Both the position numbers and the translations under genes were made by a program. Positions 790 to 53,536 of a stretch of DNA of 64,000 nucleotides are shown here, in pieces; position 1 is the stretch's first letter, and each line of letters begins with the position of its first letter. The DNA is from Actinomycetota bacterium. Lineage in GTDB: Bacteria > Actinomycetota > Geothermincolia > Geothermincolales > RBG-13-55-18. The notes below the pieces were generated by a model, which was given only the letters and a program-made list of their open reading frames with translations, was not told where the DNA came from and searched no databases. The stretch lies in contig QZKE01000033.1 in assembly GCA_003598015.1 (NCBI GenBank), positions 124,616 through 188,615 on the forward strand, written 5' to 3'.

Positions 790-1380
790 TCAGGGACCTA
801 TCAGGATACCTGTCTCCGCGATCTCCCTCCACAGGCCACGCCTGGCATTCTTCTTGCGCTCATACTCTGAGCTCGTAACGGACACTGCTGATACCTGGTT
901 TCCGAAATGTTTTGCTACCCGCAAAGACGCTTCCGAGACATCGTCTTCCTTGACCGAGAGATCAACCTCGTCTGAGAATACGAGGACAAGGTCTAAATCG
1001 CTATTCGGGATTTCCTCGCCCCTTGCTACACTACCGAACAGGATTATCGCCAAGAGATCCTGTCCAATCTCGTCGGAAAAAATACTTGCCACTTCTCCGA
1101 GAAGATCCTCTTCAAGCTCGAATGCAGGGGATAAGACCCTAGTGAAAATGATGTTATCTTGATCCAGGGAATACATATTCGACCTGCCGGCTTGCTGCTT
1201 TACGACCAGGCCGTGGCGCTCGAGTTCTTCTAGCGCATAGCGGGTCGTATTGTGAGACTGCCCGATCAGCCTTGCCAGCTCTCTTCCCGTATGAGCGCTT
1301 CTCGTTCTGGAAAGAAGCCTCAGGAGTCTGACCTGAGTCCTGTTGCCCAAGATGTCGTCAAGTGGCTCGTGAAACCTCAT
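790..1380 (-). CDS. Nucleotidyltransferase (MNT) domain protein with N-terminal winged-HTH; antitoxin-like partner of HEPN gene
   Basis: 196 aa; N-terminal wHTH (RLLRLL...GRELARLIG); GS-x9-12-D-x-D motif (FGSVARGEEIPNSDLDLVLVF). Confidence 0.8.
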   Translation of the reverse strand: MRFHEPLDDILGNRTQVRLLRLLSRTRSAHTGRELARLIGQSHNTTRYALEELERHGLVVKQQAGRSNMYSLDQDNIIFTRVLSPAFELEEDLLGEVASIFSDEIGQDLLAIILFGSVARGEEIPNSDLDLVLVFSDEVDLSVKEDDVSEASLRVAKHFGNQVSAVSVTSSEYERKKNARRGLWREIAETGILIGP

Positions 1381-8303: not shown

Positions 8304-9470
8304 CTAGACCCAACCGCGCTTGGCCATGTAGTTGACCATGGGCTCGGCCAGTCCCGATCCGTACATGAGGGGAAGCATCTTCACGAAGAGGGGAAGGCTG
8401 GTCACCTTCATCACCGGGTTGAGTTTGCCGAAGCCGAGCCCTCTTTTTTTCGCCAGTTCCGACAGCATATTGAGGTAATTCGCCGGCACCGGCGCCGTTT
8501 CCCTGGCGACCAGCGACAAGGCATGCTGCGCACAGGTGGAGACACAGAGGCCGCAACCGATGCACCTGGCGAGGTCGATCTCGACCCTGCCGTCCGTCTC
8601 GGAGATCGCCTCCATCTGGCAGCGCTCCAGGCACACCCCGCATGCGGTGCAGCGTTCAGGGTATTTCCTGACCAGGAAGGCGGAGCGGACGTAATCGGCG
8701 GGCCTGTCGTGTACCTTCAACATGCGCAGCAGAGCGCAGCAGCACGAGCAGCAGCAGCACATGTGCACGATGTCCCGGCTGTTGGTGGGCATGAGTATCA
8801 TCGCGTTCTCATCGGCGCGATCGACGATCTTCAGGGCCTCGTCGATGCTTATCTCCCGCCCCTTGCCGGTGCGTATCATGTGATCGGCCCCTATGCCGAA
8901 ACTCAGGCAGGTCTCGTGCGGCTTCTCGCATTCATTGCCCAGCAGGCCCTGCTGCTTCTTGCAGATACATTCCGCCACGGCGGCCAGTTTCTGTTTCTTG
9001 ATGATCTCCCTGGCCTTGTCGAAGCTGGCGATGGATGAGGTGGGGTCCACGGCGGCGCCTACGGGCACCACGCGGTGCTGCTGAAGGACCGCGTCGCCCA
9101 GGTGTTTCTCGAATTCCACTACCATCTCCGCCAGTTCGCGGTCGATGGTGTCTACGAAGAACTCGAGGAAGCCTACCTGGTACTGCGTCGCCTGGTAGAA
9201 ATCGTGCTTGCCACTGTGGATCCTGATGATGAGTCCCGTCTGTGCCATCTCGGCGAGTTTCTCGGCGGCCCGTTCCTCGGACATCCCCCACCGCTTCGCG
9301 ATCACCGCGGGCGGTTCGGGGAACAGCCGCAACTGCATGGTAAGGCGGGCATCCTCCGGCGTGAACATCTTCGCCAGGATCTTCAGTTCCACCCCGCTCT
9401 CGGTCGAGGGGAATCCTCCCGGCGTTCTATCCAGATACTCTCGCAGTCGGGTGTAGGTTTCCTCCGGCAT
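8304..9470 (-). CDS. Iron-sulfur protein: N-terminal helical/wHTH-like region, poly-Cys tract (HMCCCCSCCC) and C-terminal 2x[4Fe-4S] ferredoxin domain
   Basis: CTACGVCLERC and CIGCGLCVSTC CxxCxxCxxxC motifs; additional CxxxC...C cysteines; RBS AAAGGAGAGG before ATG 9470. Confidence 0.7.
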   Translation of the reverse strand: MPEETYTRLREYLDRTPGGFPSTESGVELKILAKMFTPEDARLTMQLRLFPEPPAVIAKRWGMSEERAAEKLAEMAQTGLIIRIHSGKHDFYQATQYQVGFLEFFVDTIDRELAEMVVEFEKHLGDAVLQQHRVVPVGAAVDPTSSIASFDKAREIIKKQKLAAVAECICKKQQGLLGNECEKPHETCLSFGIGADHMIRTGKGREISIDEALKIVDRADENAMILMPTNSRDIVHMCCCCSCCCALLRMLKVHDRPADYVRSAFLVRKYPERCTACGVCLERCQMEAISETDGRVEIDLARCIGCGLCVSTCAQHALSLVARETAPVPANYLNMLSELAKKRGLGFGKLNPVMKVTSLPLFVKMLPLMYGSGLAEPMVNYMAKRGWV

Positions 9471-10955: not shown

Positions 10956-11624
10956 TCAGGCTCTCCCCTCCAGCTGCTGTTGCAGGAGCGCGTTGACCCC
11001 CGCGAGCAAGAAAGTCACGGTCTGATCAGAGATCTCCGGGATACGGTCGGATTCATCCCGCCATATCAGGTAGTGATAGGCGACCTGCGCATAGAGGCCG
11101 ACGGTCAGTACGGCGATCAATTCCATGAGAGGGGCGGAGATGACGATATCGCCCTCGCGCCGGCAGACCTCTTCCAATCCGCCCTGGATATCCGCGGTGA
11201 GTTTCTCGAACAACTGCTTCCTCTGTTCCTCGACCTCCGCGCCCTGGCCGACCGTCTCGCGGAAGAGGATGGTCGCCTTTTCGGGATAGCGGCTGCAGAA
11301 GTCCAGCAGAAAGACCTGGCCGACCTGGCAGAAATCCGCGAGCGCGAAATCGGAACTCCGCAGCCCGCCGGCGAGCGATTCACGCAGGAGGTATACACAA
11401 TCGTTCATCAACCTGATCAGCAGGTCTTCCTTGTTCTTGAAGTAGAAATAGATGGTGCCGGTCGAAAACTCCGCCAGGTCCGCTATATCGCCCATGCTCG
11501 CTGTCTGGTAGCCTTTTTGAGCGAACAGCTTCTCGGCGGCGGCGAGGATAGCCGCGATACGCTGTTCCTTCTCGCGTTGCTTGCGCAGCGTTCTGCGCGG
11601 AACTTCGGGCTCTGAAGCAGGCAT
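10956..11624 (-). CDS. TetR/AcrR family transcriptional regulator
   Basis: HTH AAILAAAEKLFAQKGYQTASMGDIADLAEFSTGTIYFYFKNKEDL. Confidence 0.85.
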   Translation of the reverse strand: MPASEPEVPRRTLRKQREKEQRIAAILAAAEKLFAQKGYQTASMGDIADLAEFSTGTIYFYFKNKEDLLIRLMNDCVYLLRESLAGGLRSSDFALADFCQVGQVFLLDFCSRYPEKATILFRETVGQGAEVEEQRKQLFEKLTADIQGGLEEVCRREGDIVISAPLMELIAVLTVGLYAQVAYHYLIWRDESDRIPEISDQTVTFLLAGVNALLQQQLEGRA

Positions 11625-16649: not shown

Positions 16650-17918
16650 ATGGCTTTACAGGATATGGAAAGGGATATGGCGGGCTGTTCCAGGTGCTCG
16701 AGCTGCAAGTGGATACCCCACAACCAGGTCAAGAGCTGGAGGTTCGCCCAGGGGTGCCCCTCCAGTACCCGCTACAGCTTCCACGCTTACTCCGGCAGCG
16801 GCAAGATGATCATGGGGCTCTCCATGCTGCAGAGCCGCAGCGAGCTCAACGACGACGTGGCCGGCATCATCTATAACTGCCAGCTCTGCGGCTCTTGCCA
16901 GGTCTCGTGCCAGGTTTACCGGGACGACATCGACCTTTCCGACGTGCTCCTCGAGCTGAGGGCGAAGTGCGTGGAAGACGGCTTCCTCATCCTCGAGCAC
17001 ATGGAGATGCTGCAGTCCATGAAGAAGGAGGACAACCCCCTGGGCATGCTCAAGGCCGACCGCGGGAGGTGGGCGGAGGGGCTGGGCCTGCCGGAGATCG
17101 GCGGGCGCCAGGTGGAGGTGCTCTTCCATGCCGGTTGCCGCTACTCCTACGACGAAGACCTGCGCGGGACGGTGAGGGGTACGGTCTCCCTCCTGCGCGA
17201 TGCCGGTATAGATATCGGCGTGGCGGGGAAGGATGAGGCTTGCTGCGGCGGCAGGGCCTACGAACTGGGTTACCAGGGAGAGATGCGCAACTTCGCGGAC
17301 GACATGGCCGGCCGGGTCAAGGCCTCCGGCGCCCGCACGCTGGTCACGGCATGCTCCGACTGCTACTACACCTTCATGTACCTCTACCCCAAGAATGGAT
17401 TGGACCTCGGGGTCGAGGTGCTGCATATCACCGAGCTGGTAGGCCGCATGATCGAGGAGGGGAGGATCGAGCCCGCCGGCGAAGTGCCCATGCGCGTGAC
17501 CTATCACGATCCCTGCCACCTGGGCCGGCGGGGCGAGTCGTACAAGGAGGGCTGGAGCGGCGGCGACAAGCTGCTGCGGCCGGTACGTTTCAAGCAGAGC
17601 GGGCGTCTGGGTGTGTTCGACCCTCCGCGGGACATCATCAGGGCGCTGCCCGGAATCGAGCTGGTCGAGATGGAGCGCATACGTGAATACTCCTGGTGCT
17701 GCGGCGCCGGTGGCGGCGTGCTCGAGGCTTTCCCCGAGTTCGCTTCCTGGACGGCGGGAGACCGCCTGGAGGAGGCAGCGGCCACCGGGGCGGAGGCGCT
17801 GGTCACCGCATGTCCCTGGTGCGTGAGGGTGTTCCGGGACGCCGTGACGGAGCGGGGCATGGAGATGAAGATCTACGACGTGATGGAACTGCTGGCGTCG
17901 TCACTGGGAGGTGCTTGA
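16650..17918 (+). CDS. (Fe-S)-binding protein, GlcF/heterodisulfide-reductase-like with two CCG cysteine-rich domains
   Basis: CSRCSSC...C and CQLCGSCQVSCQ ferredoxin-type motifs; two CCG-type cysteine-rich repeats (AGCRYSY...ACCGG; ACSDCYY...HDPCHLGR; WCCGAGGG). Confidence 0.85.
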   Translation: MALQDMERDMAGCSRCSSCKWIPHNQVKSWRFAQGCPSSTRYSFHAYSGSGKMIMGLSMLQSRSELNDDVAGIIYNCQLCGSCQVSCQVYRDDIDLSDVLLELRAKCVEDGFLILEHMEMLQSMKKEDNPLGMLKADRGRWAEGLGLPEIGGRQVEVLFHAGCRYSYDEDLRGTVRGTVSLLRDAGIDIGVAGKDEACCGGRAYELGYQGEMRNFADDMAGRVKASGARTLVTACSDCYYTFMYLYPKNGLDLGVEVLHITELVGRMIEEGRIEPAGEVPMRVTYHDPCHLGRRGESYKEGWSGGDKLLRPVRFKQSGRLGVFDPPRDIIRALPGIELVEMERIREYSWCCGAGGGVLEAFPEFASWTAGDRLEEAAATGAEALVTACPWCVRVFRDAVTERGMEMKIYDVMELLASSLGGA

Positions 17919-17919
17919 G

Positions 17920-19572
17920 ATGATAACGGATGCAGCCTACCGGGAACTCCAGGAAACCCTGGGTGCGGAGAACGTCTCCCGCGAGCCGGCGGTGCTGGAC
18001 GGCTATACCTGGCAGCCCTTCACCGATATCCTCGGACTTCCCGACTCATGGTGCCGCTACCGGCCCGCCGCGGTGGTGCTGCCGGGAAGCACCGAAGAGG
18101 TGCAGGAGGTGGTGAGGATCTGCGGCCGGCACGGGCTGCAGTTCAAGGCCATGAGCACGGGCTGGGGCGCCTGGAACGCCATGGGCGGGGAGAACACCGT
18201 GCAGATCGACCTGAAGCGGATGAACCGCATCCTGGAGATAGACGAGAAAAACATGTACGCGGTGGTGGAGCCCTGTGCCGTCTGCTCCCAGCTGCAGGCT
18301 GAGGCGATGAAGAAGGGTTTGAACTGCCATATCATCGGGGCCGGCTGCGGCTCCTCACCATTGGCCAGCGCCACCTCGCTGTGCGGTTACGGCTGGAGCG
18401 GCCTCACCACCTCCTACAGCGCCCGCAACGTGCTGGGCGTGGAATGGGTGCTGCCCGACGGCGAGGTGCTCAGGATCGGGACCCCGGGCCAGGACGCGGG
18501 TTGGTTCAACGGCGACGGCCCCGGACCCAGCCTGCGCGGCGCCATGCGCGGCTTCATGGGTGCCTGCGGCGGCCTGGGGGTGTTCACGCGCTGCGCCGTG
18601 AAGCTCTTCCCCTGGCCGGGTCCCGAGGAGCCGCAGGTCGAGGGGCTGCTCAACGACGTCACCGCGGAGGTGCCGGACACCCACGCCATGTTCCTGATCG
18701 CCTTTCCCGACCTGCAGCGTTGGGCCGATGCCGCCTACAGTGTCGCCGACGCGGAGATAGGGTACATGATGTGTAAGAACGCCATCGGGGCCCTGGTGGC
18801 GACCATGATGCCCCGGGGGCTGAAGGAGTTGACGCGCTTTGCGGTGTTCAAGGACATACTCAAGACCTTGCGCTACCAGTTCCAGTTCCTGGTCTGCGCG
18901 AGGACGCCGCGGGAATTCGCATACCAGAAAGCGGTCCTCAGGGAGATCGTCGAGGAATGCGAGGGCATATGCCTGGACGTGAGCAAGCTGCCGGGCCTGC
19001 ACGACGCTTTCTGGTGGGGATTCGTGCGCGCGGCCATGCCCCCGCTTATCTTCCGCATGGGCGGAACCTTCGGGACCTCCTACGGCGCCCTGGAGGGGTT
19101 CGATCACCCCGCCTACCAGTCCCAGGAGGGAGCCCGCCTGAAGAGCCAGTACACCGAGACGGGCAGGCTCATGGACGACCTGGCGGACAACTCCTGGGGA
19201 GGCATCTACGAGGGGAGCACGGGGTTCGGCCACCAGGAGGAACTGTATGTTTACGACCCGCGCGACTCCGCCCAGCTGGAGGCGGCGGAGGATTATCTGG
19301 CGGGTACCCTGGTGGACACCGCGGCGAAGAAGCTGGGCCCCGGCCTGGGGTTCGCGGGAGGAGCCATCGTGGCGGAGATCTTCGGCCCCCTCATCGGCGA
19401 CTATCACGAATGGCTGCGCAAGATCAAGGGCGCCTTCGACCCGGACAACGTGAGCGATCCCGCCTTCTACGTATCCCCCGATCCGGAGAAGCTCATCGCC
19501 GAGGAGATGGCCAACCGGCCCGGCATGGCGCAGAGCCTCCTCAGCGTGATGGGGGAGGAGGATACTCCGTAG
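17920..19572 (+). CDS. FAD-binding oxidoreductase (second FAD-linked oxidase subunit, GlcE/GlcD-like)
   Basis: FAD-binding PCMH region (VVLPGSTEEVQEVVRICGRHGLQFKAMSTG); ATG 17920 with GGGAGGTG 6 nt upstream. Confidence 0.8.
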   Translation: MITDAAYRELQETLGAENVSREPAVLDGYTWQPFTDILGLPDSWCRYRPAAVVLPGSTEEVQEVVRICGRHGLQFKAMSTGWGAWNAMGGENTVQIDLKRMNRILEIDEKNMYAVVEPCAVCSQLQAEAMKKGLNCHIIGAGCGSSPLASATSLCGYGWSGLTTSYSARNVLGVEWVLPDGEVLRIGTPGQDAGWFNGDGPGPSLRGAMRGFMGACGGLGVFTRCAVKLFPWPGPEEPQVEGLLNDVTAEVPDTHAMFLIAFPDLQRWADAAYSVADAEIGYMMCKNAIGALVATMMPRGLKELTRFAVFKDILKTLRYQFQFLVCARTPREFAYQKAVLREIVEECEGICLDVSKLPGLHDAFWWGFVRAAMPPLIFRMGGTFGTSYGALEGFDHPAYQSQEGARLKSQYTETGRLMDDLADNSWGGIYEGSTGFGHQEELYVYDPRDSAQLEAAEDYLAGTLVDTAAKKLGPGLGFAGGAIVAEIFGPLIGDYHEWLRKIKGAFDPDNVSDPAFYVSPDPEKLIAEEMANRPGMAQSLLSVMGEEDTP

Positions 19573-19574
19573 GC

Positions 19575-19606
19575 TCAGGCATAGGGGTCGGCCCTGGACT
19601 CATGCC
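19575..19606 (+). repeat. Dispersed palindromic repeat unit TCAGGCATAGGGGTCGGCCCTGGACTCATGCC (copy 1)
   Basis: Identical 32-mer recurs at 44579-44610; followed in both copies by ..CTTGCGATC.. Confidence 0.6.
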
Positions 19607-19643
19607 CGGGACTTGCGATCCCTATGCCTGACGGGCTTCTTCC

Positions 19644-19678
19644 TCAGGCATAAGTCCAGGGCCGACCCCTATGCCTGA
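19644..19678 (-). repeat. Inverted copy of the same palindromic repeat (TCAGGCATAAGTCCAGGGCCGACCCCTATGCCTGA)
   Basis: Contains exact reverse complement of AGGCATAGGGGTCGGCCCTGGACT from copy 1; lies between convergent gene ends. Confidence 0.6.
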
Positions 19679-20382
19679 TCGCCGAATCCCTTCTCGACCC
19701 GCGACAGGTGCCGGAACATGGCCGCGCGCGCCGCGGCGGGGTCGTGCGACTTCAGGGCCCGCACGATGGCGCGGTGATCGCGTACGGTCTGCCGGCGGAT
19801 GTCCGGGGATTCCGCAGTCCGCCGGCGGCTGTACACGCTCAGCTGGTTGATGGAGGACATGAAGAGCTCCAGGATACCGTTACGGGCCGCCTTGACGATC
19901 TGATTGTGGAGCGCCAGGTCCAGATGGAGGAAGGCCTCCGCATCGTCCACCCTCTCCTTCGCTTCCTTCACCAGCGCCTCCAGTTCCTCCACCTCGGAAT
20001 CGGTTATGTTGCCGGCGGCCAGCTCGGCCAGGCCTGTTTCCATAATCTTCCTGGCCTTGAAGAGGTCTACGTAGACGGCATCGTCGAGGACGAAGACCGC
20101 CTCGAGGTGTTCGATCAGCTTCTTCGGTTCCAGGGAAGTGATGTAATTCCCGGAACCCTGCCGGTTCTCGATGATGTTCATGATCTGAAGGGCTCGCAGG
20201 GCCTCCCGCAGTGAGGGGCGGCTCACCTGCATCATGCGCGCGAGCTCGCGCTCCGAGGGCAGCCGGTCCCCGGGGCGCAGCTGCTTCTCCTTGATGAGGG
20301 AGAGTATCCTCTTGGCGATCTTCATGGAGAGGGTTTCCCTCTCCAGGGTTCCGAACAGGTCCCCCCACGGCTGGTCTACCAT
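19669..20382 (-). CDS. GntR/FadR family transcriptional regulator
   Basis: wHTH RLPSERELARMMQVSRPSLREALRAL plus FadR-type C-terminal helical domain; start uncertain (20382, 20325 or track 20457). Confidence 0.8.
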   Translation of the reverse strand: MVDQPWGDLFGTLERETLSMKIAKRILSLIKEKQLRPGDRLPSERELARMMQVSRPSLREALRALQIMNIIENRQGSGNYITSLEPKKLIEHLEAVFVLDDAVYVDLFKARKIMETGLAELAAGNITDSEVEELEALVKEAKERVDDAEAFLHLDLALHNQIVKAARNGILELFMSSINQLSVYSRRRTAESPDIRRQTVRDHRAIVRALKSHDPAAARAAMFRHLSRVEKGFGDQA

Positions 20383-20392
20383 CGCCGCGGCC

Positions 20393-21163
20393 TCACTTGG
20401 CCACCCAACCACAATCCACGAGGAGGTCAGCGCCGGTGATGAAGGAGGCCTTCTCACTGGCGAGGAAATAGACCGCTTCCGCTATCTCCAGGGGAGAGGC
20501 CCAGCGCTTGAAGGCCTGCTCCGCCTCTCTCATCTTCTTGACCTCCTCGTAAGGCAGGCCGGTCCTGCGGGATTCGATATCTATGTCCCCACGCAGCATG
20601 GGGGTATCCACCGACCCCGGGCTCAACGAGTTCACCCGGATCCCGTGGGGCGCCAGTTCCCAGGCGATGGCGCGGGTGAAGGAGATGACCGCGCCCTTGC
20701 TGGCCCCGTACACGGAGTGGTCCACCTGGCCCACGTGGCCGGACACCGATCCCATGTTAACGATGGCCCCCGCACGCTGCCCCTTCATCACCGGGACGAC
20801 GTGCTTGCAGAAGAGAAAGATCCCGCCCAGGTTGATGTTCACCACCCGCCTGAACTCGTCCACGCCGATTTCCTCTACCGGCTTCACCAGCACTACGCCG
20901 GCGTTGTTCACCAGTACGTCGATGCGCCCGAAACGGTCCGCCACGTCGTGCACGAAGGAAGCTACGTCTTTCTCCTCGGCCACGTCCCCCCGGGCGCTGT
21001 GGCACGCCGCCCCCTCCGCTTCAGCGGCGGCGGCTGTCTCCTGCACGGCTTCGGCTATGTCCATGACGGCCACGTCGTATCCGTTGCGGGCGAAAAGCTC
21101 CGCCGCGGCCCTCCCGATGCCGCTCGCGGCGCCCGTGACCATGGCCAGGCTTCTTCCCTCCAT
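20393..21163 (-). CDS. SDR family NAD(P)-dependent oxidoreductase
   Basis: TGAASGIGRA Rossmann motif, NNAG, catalytic YGASK. Confidence 0.85.
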   Translation of the reverse strand: MEGRSLAMVTGAASGIGRAAAELFARNGYDVAVMDIAEAVQETAAAAEAEGAACHSARGDVAEEKDVASFVHDVADRFGRIDVLVNNAGVVLVKPVEEIGVDEFRRVVNINLGGIFLFCKHVVPVMKGQRAGAIVNMGSVSGHVGQVDHSVYGASKGAVISFTRAIAWELAPHGIRVNSLSPGSVDTPMLRGDIDIESRRTGLPYEEVKKMREAEQAFKRWASPLEIAEAVYFLASEKASFITGADLLVDCGWVAK

Positions 21164-39209: not shown

Positions 39210-39557
39210 TCATACTTCTTTCTCTATTACGTATGCGATGAGCGGCTTAAGTCTCGGGATGTCCTCCATCACGGTGTTCCATACCACCCTTGAATTCACC
39301 CCGAAATATTCATGGATCAGCTTATCACGGATTCCAGCCATCTCCTTCCAGGGGACCTCTGGATAGGAATCCCTTGTCTCTGGAGGGATTTTCTTCGAAG
39401 CCTCGCCGACGATCTCCAGGGCCCTGACCACGGCGTACGAGGTCTTCTTGTCCTTTGTGAATGCTTCGTAATCAAGGCCTTGCGTAAAATCCACGATGTC
39501 CAGGATAGCCCTTTGGATGTCTTGAAGGTAGTCCTTATGATCTCTTTCGGCAATCAT
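39210..39557 (-). CDS. hepT: HepT-like HEPN toxin (DUF86 family) of type VII TA system
   Basis: R-x4-HxY motif (RDKLIHEY); 115 aa; 4-nt overlap with upstream mntA. Confidence 0.85.
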   Translation of the reverse strand: MIAERDHKDYLQDIQRAILDIVDFTQGLDYEAFTKDKKTSYAVVRALEIVGEASKKIPPETRDSYPEVPWKEMAGIRDKLIHEYFGVNSRVVWNTVMEDIPRLKPLIAYVIEKEV

Positions 39558-39895
39558 AGCGAAACGGCTTCCTTGAGGATTCTTTCACCTATTGCCGGCT
39601 TCAATGCATCCTTCATCACCAGGTCTACCTTGATTCCCAGAAGGTCGGATAGGTGATTCTCGAGTGCGATGAAAGCAAGCAAAGAGGGGGTTTTTACAAA
39701 CTCTACTAAGAGATCAAGATCGTTTGCCGACTCTCTCCCGCCCCGCAGAAAGGACCCGAAGACCTGAATGTTGCCTACGTGGTAGTCACATTTCAATCGC
39801 GGGAGGTTCTGGCGCAAGGCAGATATTATCTCCTGGGTATCTCCAGGAAGATCCTTATAACCATGTGGGCTCTTACCCTTGGAGTCCGTAGCCAT
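39554..39895 (-). CDS. mntA: MntA-like nucleotidyltransferase antitoxin
   Basis: GSxxRG...DxD motif (FGSFLRGGRESANDLDLLV); 113 aa. Confidence 0.85.
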   Translation of the reverse strand: MATDSKGKSPHGYKDLPGDTQEIISALRQNLPRLKCDYHVGNIQVFGSFLRGGRESANDLDLLVEFVKTPSLLAFIALENHLSDLLGIKVDLVMKDALKPAIGERILKEAVSL

Positions 39896-40208
39896 ACCCT
39901 TTCCACCACCTCAAATCGGCCTGTTCTGTAAACATTCTACAATGCCAAGAAGACCTTGACACTATAAAAACATTACATGGGGCTAAACAGCACAGCCCAT
40001 GCCGGTCGTGAGGGTGCTGTCGTGATCCGTAATGTGTGGGACTACCCAGATATGATACCCCTACCCGAGGTGCTATCATGGTTGTAGTGCTGTGGTTCGG
40101 GGCCAAAGGGTTCCAACTATTTAAGGGTTACGCGCAGGGCAGTTCCCTTGCATGCGTGACCACCATCAAGAGGGCCTGCACCACTGGATCTATCCAGGTG
40201 AGGTGCAC

Positions 40209-43200
40209 ATGGGAAATATCTTCATCAGCCACGTCATTGCGGACGAGCTCCTCATGCGCGAAATAGCGCAGGGGCTCGAGGAGGCGGGCTATGCCGCCTG
40301 GTTCTTCGAGAGGGGCGTCCTCCCCGGAACCTCCTATCTCATCCAGATCACCCGGGCGATAGAGGCCTGCGACGCCCTGGTACTGCTGGTCACCCCCGCA
40401 GCCCTCGAATCCGACCAGGTGACCAAGGGGGTGGTGGGGGCCTTCGAGCGCAGGATACCTTTCATACCGGTACTGGTGGGTGTGATCCCTGACGAGCTCA
40501 AGGAATGCCAGCCGGAGTGGCGGCACGCCCTGGGGGGAACGGCCATGCTCTGCTGCGGGGAGGGGGGCCTCTCACCCACCATACCGCGCATCATAGATGG
40601 AATCCGGGCGCTGGGCATAGAACCCAAGGAAAGGGAGTTCTCTACAACTACCCCTGCTTCCTCCGCACCAGCAGATGTCTCCGAGCACATTCTCTCCTAC
40701 CGCTCATCCCTGGAGGGGGAGCGCAAGCAGGTGACGGTGCTCTGCGCCGGCGCATCCCTTCCTCCCGCCCTCTCCGAGAAGCTCGACCCCGAGGAGGTAC
40801 ACGACCTCCTGAGGCCGGCTATAGACATCATGGCTGAGGAGGTCCACAGATACGAGGGCACCGTGGCCCAGCTCGCAGGCGACGGCCTCACCGCCGTCTT
40901 CGGAGCCCCCCTGGCTCACGAGGACGACCACCAGCGGGCCCTGTACGCGGCACTGGCCATCAGGAAGCGCCTGGGCGGATACGAGGAGAGACTCAAAGCC
41001 AAGGGGATGGAACTTGCCCTGCGCGCGGGGGCCAACACCGGCCTCATCAAGGTGGAGGCCGTAGGGGAGGACCTCTCCATGTCCTATACCCCCCTGGGCA
41101 TGGGCAAGTCCCGCCTGCTGCTCGAGTTCAGGAAAACCCTCCCCGAGGACGAATACACCTACCTGGAGGGGGGGTGAATCCACTACGGGGAGGCCATCGC
41201 CTACCTCCCCATCCTGGACATCCTGCGGGACTACTTCGATATCGCTGAGGGAGAGGATGAGAAGAGCAGCAGACGCAAAGTGGAGGAAAGGCTGGCTCCC
41301 CTGGACGGCCAGCTCTCCCATATCCTCCCGCCCCTCGAGGAGCTGCTCTCCCTTCCCATGGACGACGAGTCCTATCTCTCCCTGGAGCCCGCGCAGAGGA
41401 GGAAGAGAACCTTCGAGGCCATCCGCTGTCTGCTCATAGCCGAATCCCACAAGAGGCCTCTGGTGGTCTCGGTGGAGGACCTGCACTGGATGGACAGGAC
41501 GAGCGAGGACTTTATCTCCTATTTCGTGGAGAGCATGCCCGCTGCCTCCATCCTCCTGCTCCTGCTCTACCACCCGGAATACAGCCCTGCCTGGGCAAGC
41601 AAGACCTATTACCGGCAGATCCTCGTGGATCACCTGCAGGAGAGGCCGAGCATGGAACTGGTGCAGGCCATCCTCTCTGATGGTGAGGTCTCCCCCGAGC
41701 TCTCCGCTTTTATCACCGAAAGAGCCGCTGGGAACCCACTCCTTATCGAGGAGCTCACCCGCTCCCTGCTGGAGTCGGGCTCCATCACGGCAGAGGACGG
41801 GCGCTACACCCTCGCGGCCGAGCCCTCTGAGATCAAGGTGCCGGATAGCATGCAGGGCATCGTCGCCTCCCGCCTGGACCATCTGCCTGAGGAGGAGAAG
41901 GAGGTTCTGCAGCTCGCCTCGGTCATCGGGAGGGAGTTCTCACTGCGCCTGCTGGAGGAGGTCACCGGCCTGGGTAAGGTGCTCAAGTCCACACTCCACG
42001 CCCTGCAGTCCCTGGAGCTCATCTACGAGAAGGGCCTCTTCCCTGAGCCGGAGTACATCTTCAAGCATGCCCTCACCCAGGAGGTGGCCTACGAGAGTAT
42101 CCCCTCAAGAGAAGGAAGAGACTGCACGAGAAGATCGGCCAGGCAATTGAGCGGCTCTACCCGGAACGCCTGGAGGAATTCTACGAGACCCTGGCCCACC
42201 ACTACTCCAGGAGCGAGAACGCGGAAAAAGCCGTGCACTACCTCCGGCTCTCCGGAGACAGAGCGACACGCGACTACGCCAACTGGGAGGCCATACGCTT
42301 CTACCAGGAGGCTATACATATACTCGATTCCCAACCGCAGAGCGAGGAGACAAAACGGGCCAAGTTGGATATCTTCATCTCCATCCTGGACCCCGCCTTC
42401 TTCCTGGGCTTTCCCGAGGGCAGCAGCGAGTTCCTGGCAGAAGCGGAGAGGCTCGCCTGGGAACTTGGTGACGATGGCAGCCTTGTCGCCGTTTACAGCA
42501 GGTTCTCCCTCTACCACACCATGAGGGGAGACATATCCCTGGGTGTGGAATACTCCTGGAAATGCTTCGACGCAGCGGAGAAGGCCGGGGACGTTAGATC
42601 TATGTCCCTAGCCGCTTTCGACATCTGCAGCTCCCTGTTCTTCTCGGGAGATTTTTTAGAAGTCGTCATGATTGGCCGCAAGGTCATCGAGGCCCTGGAG
42701 GAGAAGCACCTGGAAAAAGAGCTCAAAGTAGGGCCGTGGACCGTATACAGCGATCAGTGCGCGTGGTGCGGAGAAGCCCTGGGGATGATGGGGGAATTCG
42801 AGGAGGCAAAGACGGTGCTGAAGAAGGGGATCGAGCATGCCCTGGGGATCGGTGAAGTCTTCGGGATCGGATATATCGGCCAAGCTCACTGCGTCGTTTC
42901 GTTCCCGGAAGGGGACGCGGATGGCCTTGCCTATCACGCGAGCAGGTCCATCGAGCGCTTCGAGGAGACGGGGGTAAAGTTCCTCCTGGGAATTTCGATG
43001 GCTTGGTCGGGGCTGGGCTATTTGCTCCTCGGCGATTATGAAACTGCAAGGGAGGATATCGAGAAGGGCAGCGAGAGCAATAGAGAGTTTGGCTTACCAA
43101 TCATGCTGTCGTTTTTTTCATGGGCGCTGTCCCTGGTTGATCTCGGAGCAGGGGCACCCGGCAAAGCAAAAGCGCATGCGGAGGAGGCCTTGAGGCTGGC

Positions 43201-43519
43201 GCGTGTGCACGGGGCGGTGTTATATGAGGCATTGGCCCTAGTGGCCCTGGGAAGGGCGGAGGGAGAAGAGTCCCCCTCTCGTTTGCGGGAAGCATCAGAG
43301 CATATCCGTTGCGGTATTTCCATGGCCGAGGAGATGTTGTCGAAGCCAATCTCACAGCTGGGCTATATTTTTCTTGGCGAGGTCTTCGAGCTAGCCGGCC
43401 GAAGGGAAGAAGCTGTGGAGGAACTTCGTAAGGCAGAGGCGATGATGGAGGAGCTGCGGGTGATTCCCGACTCCTACTGGCTCACCCGCACCCGGGAAGC
43501 TCTGGCGCGTCTCGGTTAG
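40209..43519 (+). pseudogene. Disrupted TIR domain - class III adenylate/guanylate cyclase (partial) - AAA_16/STAND ATPase - TPR protein (in-frame TGA at 41175-41177; -1 frameshift in C4 run 42101-42104)
   Basis: TIR: MGNIFISH...DALVLLV...PVLV. Cyclase N-half: ERKQVTVLCAGA...GDGLTAVFGAP..HEDD. Walker A: GMGKSRL. The same frame continues after TGA (...LEGG*IHYGEAIAYLPILDIL...). The downstream frame resumes ...PLKRRKRLHEKIGQAIERLYPERLEEFYETLAHHY then TPR repeats to 43519. Confidence 0.6.
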
Positions 43520-44209: not shown

Positions 44210-44555
44210 ACCTCATGGAAATGGAATTTACGCAATGGCGCGTGTCCTTGGGGGTGAACCTCTCACCCTCGAAGACGTGGCCGAGATGGCCCCCGCACTT
44301 CGCGCACATGATCTCCGTCCTCCTGCCGTCTGCGTCGGTTTGCCTCTTCACCGCCCCCGCGATCTCGTCGTCAAAGCTGGGCCAGCCGCAGCCCGAATGG
44401 AACTTGTCCTGCGAGCGGTAAAGGGGAGTACCGCACCTCCGGCATACGTAGGTGCCTGGCTGTAAGAGGTCCGTATACTCTCCCGTAAAGGGTCTTTCCG
44501 TTCCCTTGTGAACGATAATCCTCTCTTCCTCGGCCGTAAGCTTTCTCTCTTCCAT
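44184..44555 (-). CDS. msrB: Peptide-methionine (R)-S-oxide reductase MsrB
   Basis: Zn-binding CxxC pairs ([20 protein letters not shown]), catalytic RHC(V)NS; overlaps msrA by 26 nt. Confidence 0.9.
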
Positions 44556-44578: not shown

Positions 44579-44613
44579 TCAGGCATAGGGGTCGGCCCTG
44601 GACTCATGCCTGA
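44579..44613 (+). repeat. Third copy of dispersed palindromic repeat (TCAGGCATAGGGGTCGGCCCTGGACTCATGCCTGA) with terminal inverted ends TCAGGCAT/ATGCCTGA
   Basis: 32/32 identity to 19575-19606; intergenic between msrB and the repeat-domain gene. Confidence 0.6.
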
Positions 44614-44695
44614 GACCTTTCTTGCGATCTTGGTTCTCCAGTCTATATAAAATCTATTCCCATTCGGGCCACGCCTGTATGTTCCATGTCAACCT

Positions 44696-45837
44696 TCATG
44701 GCTGGAAACCCACAACGTCGTGGCCTCCGCTCCATGACCCGTCGTAGTCGAAGTACATGGGGCGCTCGGCGATTACAGGCGGGCCGCTGGTCACCAGGAC
44801 CCGGCAGGACAATTGCAGGCCGATGCCGGCGTCCAGGTTGACGGGGATGGTGTAACGGCTCCCGGCCGGCAGGCTGTGCTCACGGGTGAAGGCGTCCCCA
44901 CCCTGGGGCATGTAGGTCACCAGGACAGTGGATGGAGAATCGGCGGGGTTGTACAGGCACAGCCACTCCTCGAAATCGCTGTCCGCGTATCCCTCGGCGA
45001 AAAACCATTCACGCCCCGGCGCGCCTGCGCCGATGACGCAATGACCTCCCGTCCATGCCCCATGATAATTGAAGTACATGGGTCGTTCGGCTACGATGGG
45101 CGCATCCGCTGCGACCTTGACGGAAACCTCGCGGTTTGGCCCCACGACGTCGTTAACACATACCGTAGTGCGGGAGACGGGACCGACGATGACATCCTGA
45201 TCCTGCCTGGTGCCGTCGGCGAACATGTAGGATATGGAGACGCCGGCCGGCTGCAGGCCGGGGTTCGCGAGGCAGAGATACTCGTCGAACTCGCCCTGTC
45301 CCGTGTATCCCTCTGCGAAATAGAAGATCGTCCCGGGGCGGGGGTACCGATGACATCATGCCCGCCCGTCCACACCCCGTTGTAATTGAAATACATGGGG
45401 CGCTCCACTACGATAGGCTGCCCCCCGGCGCTTTCAACTTTCACGGAGAAGTCGTGTGCTACGTCGTCGGCGACGCCCAGCTCGTCCCGGGGATCGACGG
45501 TAAGGCGGGAATGTGCGGCTACGGCCACTTCCTGGCTGTCCATCGTGCCGTCTCCCAGCATGTAGGTTATTTTCGCCGTCGCTTGTTCGTCCCCGGGATT
45601 CTGGATGCACAGGTAAGGCACGAAGCCGGGTCGGCAGGTCCCCTCCGCGAAATAGAAACAAGTCTGCGGCGCGGGGATACCCACTACGTCATGGCCACCC
45701 GTCCACACCCCGTTGTAGTTGAAGTACATGGGGCGCTCGGCCACGATACGCTGTCCGTTCACGCATTCGACTTTGATGGAAAAGTCGTATGAGGTGTCGT
45801 CACCGGTCCCCAACTCGCTGCGGGGCAGCACGGTCAT
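44696..45837 (-). pseudogene. Tandem-repeat protein (at least 3 copies of an about 120-aa domain with W.FAEG and ERPMYFNY..W.GGHDV motifs) split into two frames by a 1-nt indel near 45335-45350; N-terminus starts mid-repeat
   Basis: Track ORFs 45091..45837 and 44696..45226 overlap in different frames. DNA at 45315-45378 is 1 nt shorter than the paralogous segment at 45655-45719. Confidence 0.45.
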
Positions 45838-46226: not shown

Positions 46227-47273
46227 ATGAACACGCTGTCGCTGGAATACATAGGGGGGAAGCTCCTGCCTCAGCAGTTGTTGAAGACCATCAGATTGAT
46301 CGGGGAATACAAAGGGAGGCAAGACCTGTTCAAGGCGCAGGCGCCACAGATGCTGGAGAGCTTGAGGCAGGTGGCCATGGTGCAGAGCGTGGAGTCTTCC
46401 AACCGCATCGAGGGCATCACCGCACCCCATGAGAGAATCCTGGCCTTGGTGGGCGAAAAAACCTCGCCCAAGGACAGGTCCGAGCAGGAGATCGCCGGAT
46501 ACCGGGACGTGCTCAACAGCATCCACGCCAATTATAAGAACATGGAGCTCTCTGAGGAGCTTATCTTGGGGATGCACAAAGACCTATACGGATACCTTCC
46601 CGATGAAGGAGGCTTTTGGAAGAGGAGAGACAATCGGATCGTTCAGATAATGGCCGGCGGGAGCGTGGTAGTGAGGTTCGACCCCGTGGCGGCGTCTGAG
46701 ACCAAGAAGGCCATGGCAGACCTGCAAAAACGCTTCGAGGTGTTGTGGCGCTCGGGTGAAGTGGAGCCGCTCCTTTTAATCGCAAGCTATGTATTCGATT
46801 TTTCGTGCATCCATCCCTTCCAGGATGGGAACGGCAGGATGGCGCGCCTGCTCACCCTCCTGCTCCTCTACAAGCAGGACTATGAGGTAGGCCGCTACAT
46901 CAGCCTGGAGAAGGTGGTGGAGCAAACCAAGGATAGCTATTACCGCGTGCTCTATACATCCTCCCAGGGATGGCATGAAAAGGAGCACGACATCCTGCCA
47001 TGGTGGGAATACTTCATCGGGGTTATGTTGCTCTCTTCCTATAGGGAATTTGAAGAGAGGGTGGGGGTGGTGTCCTCATCGAGGGGGACCAAGACCGCCA
47101 TGGTCTTGGACGTTATCAACGGCTTTGCAGGAGAGTTCACCTTTGCGGACTTAAAGGAAAGGTGCCCCACCGTCAGCGTGGATATGATCAGAAAGGTCTT
47201 GAAAGATGAGCGCGGGGCCGGAAACCTGGAATGCAGGGGCAAAGGCCCGGGGGCGAGGTGGAGGAATACATGA
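46227..47273 (+). CDS. Fic family protein (class II, N-terminal inhibitory SxxxEG motif) with C-terminal wHTH-like domain
   Basis: HPFQDGNGRMARLL Fic motif; SNRIEG inhibitory motif about 130 aa upstream; lower-GC region. Confidence 0.85.
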   Translation: MNTLSLEYIGGKLLPQQLLKTIRLIGEYKGRQDLFKAQAPQMLESLRQVAMVQSVESSNRIEGITAPHERILALVGEKTSPKDRSEQEIAGYRDVLNSIHANYKNMELSEELILGMHKDLYGYLPDEGGFWKRRDNRIVQIMAGGSVVVRFDPVAASETKKAMADLQKRFEVLWRSGEVEPLLLIASYVFDFSCIHPFQDGNGRMARLLTLLLLYKQDYEVGRYISLEKVVEQTKDSYYRVLYTSSQGWHEKEHDILPWWEYFIGVMLLSSYREFEERVGVVSSSRGTKTAMVLDVINGFAGEFTFADLKERCPTVSVDMIRKVLKDERGAGNLECRGKGPGARWRNT

Positions 47274-47767: not shown

Positions 47768-47835
47768 AGGGCTCAAATGTTGACATTTCGTATTTCTCTA
47801 CAAGCCCCATGGATTTGAAAGTCAACATTTGAGCT
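47768..47835. promoter_or_regulatory. Long inverted repeat GGGCTCAAATGTTGACATTTCG / TGAAAGTCAACATTTGAGCTC (25-nt spacer) upstream of the glpA-like operon; operator or terminator hairpin
   Basis: 14-bp perfect core GCTCAAATGTTGAC in both arms read from sequence. Confidence 0.4.
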
Positions 47836-47912
47836 CTGACCCCATAATCTTGATTTTTATGGGTAGAATGGTATGAATAGGCCTGAGGACACCGATTGAA
47901 CGAAGGAAACGT

Positions 47913-52288: not shown

Positions 52289-52373
52289 GGGGTCGTATCT
52301 TCGATCTTCGGTTCTTGCTTAGATAAACGCTGCCCCTAACGGAATACTGAACTCAATATTGAAGATACGACCC
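52289..52373. repeat. 16-bp near-perfect inverted repeat GGGTCGTATCTTCGAT / ATTGAAGATACGACCC with about 52-nt loop between convergent mscS and ligase genes
   Basis: Read from sequence; 15/16 complementary. Confidence 0.4.
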
Positions 52374-53437: not shown

Positions 53438-53536
53438 ACGCTTGGTTGGGGTCAGCCCCGGACATGGGACAAAAACCAGACGTATACTCTTCCTATATTC
53501 GGTTTTTGTCCCATGTCCGGGGCTGGCCCCAAGCGT
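53438..53536. promoter_or_regulatory. Large palindrome (25-bp perfect arms CAGCCCCGGACATGGGACAAAAACC / GGTTTTTGTCCCATGTCCGGGGCTG, 23-nt AT-rich spacer containing TATACT/TATATT) in the divergent promoter region between the ligase gene and ligD PE-Pol/ku
   Basis: Exact reverse-complement arms at 53453-53477 and 53501-53525; partial extension ACGCTTGG../..CCAAGCGT. Confidence 0.5.

Follow-up and report, generated by a model that had tools for sequence, protein, structure and literature searches.

The gap between an FAD-oxidase-like gene (17911..19572, plus strand) and the convergent gene of a GntR/FCD regulator (19669..20457, minus strand) is occupied by two oppositely oriented copies, W1 and W2, of a short hairpin repeat that we term family A (Table 1). 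The TAG stop codon of the FAD-oxidase-like gene is followed, 2 nt on, by the start of W1, and W2 encodes the final two codons of the GntR/FCD regulator together with its TAG stop (19669-19671; GCA TAG GGG). A third copy, W3, lies 23 nt upstream of the start codon of msrB (44553-44555, minus strand), in the leader of that gene. It is also located downstream of a frame-disrupted repeat-protein gene and is antisense to both genes. The window (i.e., the whole 64-kb stretch of DNA analysed here) is roughly 88% coding, and Pfam scans of its approximately 58 ORFs returned ordinary metabolic genes, an NHEJ operon, toxin-antitoxin pairs, a Fic gene, and a TIR/STAND-like gene.

Table 1 Positions of the family A units, their associated segments, and the hairpins of families B and C in the window
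Feature	Coordinates	Strand	Remarks
A unit W1 (TCAGGCATAGGGGTCGGCCCTGGACTCATGCCCGG)	19575..19609	+	3' stem half degenerate; 58.9 bits
Spacer of the inverted dimer	19610..19643	.	GACTTGCGATC + half-unit CCCTATGCCTGA + ACGGGCTTCTTC
A unit W2, inverted relative to W1	19644..19678	-	62.1 bits
A unit W3, singleton	44579..44613	+	60.8 bits; absent from related locus L007
Extension GACCTTTCTTGCGATC, common to W1	44614..44629	+	extra relative to L007; resembles a piece of family B
Family B hairpin, arms GGGGTCGTATCTTCGATCTTCGGTTC / GAACTCAATATTGAAGATACGACCC	52289..52373	.	between convergent MscS and ATP-ligase genes
Family C hairpin, arms TTGGGGTCAGCCCCGGACATGGGACAAAAACC	53446..53532	.	between divergent ligase and LigD/Ku (NHEJ) genes

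We noticed several other repeats and variable regions in the same stretch. A perfect 17-nt inverted repeat at 1396-1441 (TAATTATGACCATATGG / CCATATGGTCATAATTA) is located just upstream of an HTH-nucleotidyltransferase (MNT-like) gene (790-1380, minus strand) that is paired with a HEPN gene (360-782), and looks like the operator of this toxin-antitoxin pair. A lower-GC variable island at 36-47 kb contains TIR/AAA_16/TPR ORFs, ArsR, a cysteine-desulfurase-like gene, and a HepT/MNT toxin-antitoxin pair (39210-39895). Specifically, successive TIR-domain, AAA_16, and TPR ORFs at 40152-43519, the last two overlapping in different frames (41280-42524 and 42233-43519), look like a STAND-type defence gene that is possibly frame-shifted. 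The region 44696-45837 encodes four copies of a tandem repeat of about 108 aa, seen in the DNA as 83-nt repeats whose period is near 325 nt, with a weak match to DUF5719. The copies are distributed over two overlapping frames (44696-45226 and 45091-45837) of what is probably a frame-shifted surface-protein gene; this repeat gene and the Fic gene (46227-47273) belong to a 3.2-kb block missing in the relative L007. Additionally, a 20-nt inverted repeat at 47768-47837 (AGGGCTCAAATGTTGACATT / AAAGTCAACATTTGAGCTCT), upstream of a DAO/Pyr_redox/DUF1667 (GlpABC-like) operon, may be an operator.

The family A unit is 35 nt long (TCAGGCATAGGGGTCGGCCCTGGACTYATGCCTGA) and is present in three full copies in the window. 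The first-pass annotation had reported the repeat at 19575 and 44579 together with an inverted copy, and this is confirmed by 32-mer matches at 19575-19606 (plus strand, 0 mismatches), 44579-44610 (plus strand, 0 mismatches), and 19647-19678 (minus strand, 1 mismatch), with 0 matches expected by chance in the window (100 shuffles). A covariance model trained on 8 units and run on the window with filters off likewise recovered exactly three A units at 58.9-62.1 bits; the next independent match scored only 12.8 bits, so the window holds no decayed A copies. The full layout of the unit is TCAGGCAT-AGGGGTCGGCCCT-GGACTY-ATGCCTGA, where a GGCAT/ATGCC stem, lengthened to TCAGGCAT/ATGCCTGA in the best copies, surrounds a mini-hairpin (GGGG-TCGG-CCCT) and a variable asymmetric loop. 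Complete units with TCAGGCAT...ATGCCTGA ends occur at 19644-19678 (minus strand) and 44579-44613 (plus strand), so that the terminal inverted ends originally ascribed to every unit hold for W2 and W3 and fail for W1, the 3' end of which is degenerate (ATGCCCGG). Similarly, CTTGCGATC, described earlier as following the copies, is found after W1 (19612-19620) and W3 (44621-44629) and is missing after W2.

Both the single unit and the dimer are strongly self-complementary. A single unit folds at -17.3 kcal/mol as RNA and -9.7 kcal/mol as DNA (z of -2.6 to -3.2), and the 104-nt W1/W2 pair forms one long hairpin of -83 to -89 kcal/mol (z of about -11) and probably serves both converging transcripts as a strong bidirectional hairpin at their 3' ends. 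Within the W1/W2 spacer, GACTTGCGATC recurs in the W3 flank, a separate half-site (CCCTATGCCTGA) lies at 19620-19631, and ACGGGCTTCTTC (19631-19642) is identical to a 12-mer between the two inverted A units of another locus, L002.

Searches of other genomes recovered 11 further A units, distributed over six additional intergenic loci of at least two more related genomes, giving 14 units at eight loci in at least three genome populations overall. The loci L001/L005, L002, and L003/L004 came from exact-core scans (MAG CAYHAT01 and JGI sediment contigs), and L026 (GCA_020060335.1) from an unbiased look-up of GH4 homologs. These results bear out the initial proposal of a dispersed family rather than a local duplication. 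A single unit is present at L001/L005, 2 nt past a stop codon; L002 carries two inverted units 214 nt apart, and L003/L004 two tandem units abutting a stop codon. L026 contains six units within 20 kb (37-57 bits). At L026 4537-4680, a 73-nt tandem duplication comprises an A unit together with the downstream methyltransferase gene's RBS and ATG, and the first of its A units gives the upstream gene its stop, again as GCA TAG; at 8622-8766, an inverted dimer with a 75-nt spacer occupies a divergent intergenic region; and at 11414-11496, a tandem pair lies at the convergent junction of GH4 and AttH. Family A thus occurs as singletons, tandem dimers, and inverted dimers, all three of the latter in the -> <- orientation, with spacers of 37 (W1/W2), 75 (L026), and 214 nt (L002) that are otherwise unrelated. 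The host genomes are 80-87% identical in the neighbouring GH4 protein, and the A sites are not orthologous.

Across the 14 units, the 19-nt core GGCATAGGGGTCGGCCCTG is invariant (14/14), and variation is mostly confined to positions 1-3 and 25-28. Paired cells make up 91% of the alignment, with a G-T pair at stem position 8/28 in four units. The same 14-unit alignment was searched for stem covariation and showed none, so that a selected RNA structure gains no support from it; the outer 3 bp are poorly conserved.

Unit counts were three in about 74 kb of the source strain, six in 20 kb of GCA_020060335.1, and three in MAG CAYHAT01 (exact 22-mer). Since an exact scan of this last genome, a species-representative MAG, recovered only three units, the copy number may be low in some genomes, unlike that of classical REPs. 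No further A copies were found in 9.2 kb upstream and 1.1 kb downstream of the window in the source strain, and contigs of the same strain from a second sample (L019, L020, L023) were 100% identical to the window. The window is contained in the 194-kb JGI contig Ga0104761_1000014, which was found through LigD. Homologs of LigD and of the FAD oxidase place the organism among uncultured Actinomycetota; as the best named match, 'Candidatus Geothermincolia', reaches 64% identity, its assignment to a class is weak. Unselected DNA of relatives, about 120 kb in all, yielded no A unit, only one decayed A-like copy being seen (L027), which points to a patchy distribution across species. The exact-core scan of viral contigs gave ten 16-mer matches, all without the CAGGCA flanks and therefore read as chance matches; blastn of plasmids with the A dimer and the C arm returned nothing meaningful, and a literature search for the core sequence found no paper. 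We also observed that the GH4/AttH junction varies among related loci: B is present there in L005 (175-265) and L028 (11429-11589), two A units in L026 (11414-11496), a decayed A-like unit in L027 (4943-4991), and neither A nor B in L024. This convergent junction is either a hot spot or the sole tolerated slot.

All eight A loci are intergenic, with at most 10 nt of overlap with ORF ends, so the question raised at the outset of whether the units are always intergenic can be answered affirmatively, allowing for this short reach into a gene end. Seven units lie within 12 nt of a stop codon; six of these seven are sense to the upstream gene, 0-12 nt from its stop, a bias (6:1) that is not significant (two-sided p about 0.13). 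In five of the six stop-adjacent sense units, the CAG-GCA-TAG frame is common with the upstream ORF (post hoc, p about 0.02), and selection for early termination may account for this. The simplest explanation for the tight fit to stop codons is genome compactness, because the tolerated slots are very short spacers and A units carry stops in two of the three frames.

Relatives sharing 84-89% nucleotide identity lack copies at orthologous sites. The relative L006 has the same four-gene cluster as the window at 72-90% protein identity (89% for the FAD oxidase); an ordinary T-tailed terminator hairpin follows its oxidase gene in place of W1/W2, and synteny stops there. We considered the downstream gene in L006 as a GntR ortholog that could serve in a test for C-terminal truncation of the regulator, and rejected it as the two proteins are unrelated. 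At the W3 locus, the relative L007 (MsrA 85%, MsrB 84%, and DAO 91% identical; msrB-DAO distance of 144 nt) lacks both W3 and the CTTGCGATC extension and retains a distal promoter-like block, ATCTATTCCCATTCG. The motif following W3 was accordingly rejected as a purely native msrB promoter, given that only the distal ATCTATTCCCATTCG is common to L007 and CTTGCGATC is, like W3, extra. Here, W3 probably adds a hairpin to the msrB leader. As L006 lacks W1/W2 and L007 lacks W3, comparison of these sequences indicates that the A copies are gains in the window lineage or losses elsewhere rather than conserved sites.

The A dimer, an 85-nt hairpin of family B, and an 87-nt hairpin of family C are longer than every other local inverted repeat in the window. 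The B hairpin fills the MscS/ATP-ligase gap and represents a related family, not a copy of A; its arms (GGGGTCGTATCTTCGATCTTCGG) recur in L002, L005, and L028, and pieces of B adjoin A at three of the eight A loci. In L002 (1396-1826), a 431-nt B element with perfect 26-nt terminal inverted repeats lies between convergent genes and has the two inverted A units nested inside it. Family C arms read GGGGTC[AC]G[CG]CCCGGACATGGGACA, with 24 nt conserved and middles ranging from 5 to about 125 nt, and recur at L026 5461-5490 and 17786-17968 and at L027 6271-6323. The C core GGGGTCAGCCCCGGAC agrees with the A core at 14 of 16 positions and with the L003 subtype of A at 17 of 19. The GGGGTC motif is common to A, B, and C; in A and C, GGGGTC(R) takes the form of a GGGG-TCRG-CCCY mini-hairpin that is conserved and has GGAC after it. 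The relative L021 (84-89% nucleotide identity) lacks B and C alike; homology there breaks at the element ends, stopping at the MscS stop codon and resuming where C ends on its right. Between MscS and the ligase gene, the empty junction in L021 is only 11 nt long and contains a small hairpin. Viral contigs searched with the B arm gave no matches. Because B and C begin with GGGGTC and the window C contains GGGACAAAAAC, we considered Tn3-family inverted repeats or TIMEs, and rejected this assignment because there is no 5-bp duplication and other C copies do not conserve the A-rich part.

We examined whether the DNA encodes an enzyme or signal that would account for the repeats. Pfam scans of the window ORFs detected no transposase or integrase, and neither the window nor about 170 kb of related DNA yielded any transposase, the REP-associated tyrosine transposase (RAYT) included. 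Specifically, Y1_Tnp (PF01797) of the RAYT type was absent from the window and from the called genes of related loci, with about 74 kb of the source genome covered. None of the A, B, or C copies is bounded by a target-site duplication, and an exact empty site was not recovered; transposition is thus inferred here rather than shown. The possibility raised earlier that the repeat is a terminator does not hold for a canonical intrinsic terminator: neither window locus has a terminator-like site (0), and no A unit is followed by a T-run, so the A hairpins are not of the canonical intrinsic type. No sigma-70-like promoter was predicted at either window A locus, and Rfam gave 0 matches at the gathering score over the whole window, only generic miRNA-precursor hairpins appearing far below threshold. 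Among 14 units and their flanks, no GTAG or CGTC tag is conserved at the unit ends, the only tag-like string being an internal ATAG. The attC motifs RYYYAAC and GTTRRRY are absent from the A unit, and the window lacks an integrase.

Small hairpin repeats are known from other bacteria and, besides MITEs, include Correia/NEMIS, ERIC, RUP, and BOX elements. REP super-families are defined by a palindromic stem-loop unit of 20-40 bp with an unpaired GTAG or CGTC tag at one end (PMC3733652); they are extragenic, mainly downstream of coding regions, and number tens to thousands per genome, with some families below 20 (PMC3733652). REPINs are inverted REP dimers with a short spacer that form a long hairpin and are mobilised by RAYT Y1 transposases, and a single-copy RAYT gene (Y1_Tnp, PF01797), flanked by the repeats, is present in the same genome (PMC3116915, PMC3337134). 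Actinomycetota are not among the phyla listed for tagged REPs (PMC3733652).

Family A shares much with these elements. It is a 35-nt imperfect palindrome, extragenic and mostly positioned just downstream of coding regions; it forms singletons, head-to-head dimers with long hairpins, and tandem arrays; and A, B, and C coexist in one genome, are patchy among related species, and lack target-site duplications. W1/W2, the L026 8622-8766 pair, and L002 are inverted dimers of the REPIN kind. Family A differs from REPs in that it lacks a GTAG/CGTC tag, that no RAYT gene was found and few copies have been found so far, and that its conserved part is the internal mini-hairpin with its flanks rather than the main stem. 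With regard to MITEs, the A dimers, B, and C are non-coding elements of 53-430 nt with 24-32-nt terminal inverted repeats that lie between genes and donate stops; however, they have no target-site duplications and no matching IS or transposase is known, and a lone A unit of 35 nt falls below the length typical of a MITE and is complete by itself. Mycobacterial MIRUs, as reportedly described by Supply et al. 1997, are 46-101-bp tandem direct repeats and not hairpins. They resemble family A as actinobacterial intergenic repeats overlapping flanking stop and start codons (cf. the 73-nt tandem duplication in L026), but have no sequence similarity to A, which is a hairpin. Therefore, the REP/MITE-like character proposed in the first-pass annotation stands in part: the units are dispersed, intergenic, arranged as in REP/BIME/REPIN systems, and missing at orthologous sites, and they carry neither the GTAG/CGTC tag nor target-site duplications. 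Because the tag is absent, we do not file A in the REP super-families, and the most fitting description is that of a new family among the small dispersed hairpin repeats of bacteria.

Overall, we consider it fairly probable that the 35-nt unit is a lineage-specific, non-autonomous, REP/REPIN-like repeat family that is proliferating now, or did so recently, in an uncultured Actinomycetota clade. That the family is, or recently was, being copied is suggested by near-identical copies at unrelated sites, their patchy presence, orthologous absence, and intergenic placement, the REP/BIME-like arrangements, and the coexisting families; in the window itself, three near-identical units occupy two unrelated loci 25 kb apart with no intermediate-scoring copies. 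Under this explanation, A would function like REP/BIME/REPIN elements or very small MITEs, and conserved master copies would give rise to units at new intergenic sites of the same genome through an enzyme presumably supplied in trans, for which a single-strand HUH/Y1-type enzyme would be the leading guess given the lack of target-site duplications. In such a compact genome, copies might survive only in tolerated slots, namely tiny convergent spacers, gene 3' ends, and leaders, and this would be why units abut or overlap stop codons and can donate a stop (GCA-TAG in the GntR gene). The units would probably act, incidentally, as hairpin terminators or structures at mRNA ends.

An explanation in which the units are host-selected cis elements, whether hairpin terminators, mRNA 3'-end stabilisers, or a host-protein site on the GGGG-TCRG-CCCY GGAC core, and owe their identity to purifying selection appears unlikely, although several observations are in line with it. 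The core is 100% conserved across genomes that are 80-87% identical at the protein level, six of seven stop-adjacent units are sense and close to the upstream stop, L006 has a canonical terminator at the W1/W2 position, and the G-T pair at stem position 8/28 recurs in four units. However, the units occupy non-orthologous sites and are missing from close relatives, so each copy would still have had to arrive by copying. The missing T-run, the non-significant orientation bias, and the lack of covariation also speak against it, as does the fact that W3 and the dimer at L026 8622-8766 occupy leader or divergent promoter regions rather than 3' ends. A cis-acting role is nevertheless compatible with the family being copied, as a secondary, exapted role. 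We find it improbable that the mobile entity is instead the inverted dimer, i.e., a classical MITE with terminal inverted repeats of about 32 bp moved by a DDE transposase, with singletons and tandems as its decay or recombination products. The same -> <- geometry in three inverted dimers, the MITE-like character of B and C (24-26-nt terminal repeats), and the 12-mer common to the W1/W2 spacer and the inside of the L002 dimer, which makes the window dimer look as though it was derived by deletion, all agree with a mobile dimer; yet no A, B, or C copy has a direct target-site duplication, no DDE transposase was seen, the spacers are otherwise unrelated, and single units are complete hairpins that stand alone or in tandem at five of eight loci.

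The position of W1/W2 exactly at the end of synteny with L006, and of W3 about 55 nt from the 3.2-kb block missing in L007, could also suggest site-specific recombination sites, like integron attC or island att sites, bordering inserted gene blocks. We regard this as highly improbable, since W3 is not at the block boundary (ATCTATTCCCATTCG, shared with L007, intervenes), no integrase, R'/R'' attC motifs, or copies paired at block ends were found, and the tandem and inverted dimers are at odds with this model. Similarity by chance or a duplication confined to this region, conceivable when only two loci were visible within the window at first reading, has a negligible probability and is refuted by the shuffled expectation of 0 matches, the unrelated flanks of the copies, and the presence of the unit at other loci of other genomes.

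The proliferating REP/REPIN-like family that we favour does not overturn current understanding, and the GGGGTC core common to the three families is the one feature worth pursuing. It is a tentative and rather doubtful idea that A, B, and C form one super-family recognised through GGGGTC(R) by one domesticated single-strand HUH/Y1-like enzyme; if true, this would be the first REPIN-RAYT-like partnership of repeat and transposase described in Actinomycetota, with a signal differing from GTAG/CGTC. The units account for the GntR stop codon, the loss of normal terminators between convergent genes, and the extra hairpin of the msrB leader, and they make useful markers when strains are typed or synteny breaks are sought in these MAGs. 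If confirmed, our finding would provide a new recognition motif for seeking the copying enzyme and would extend REP/REPIN-like intragenomic repeat populations to an uncultured actinobacterial clade.
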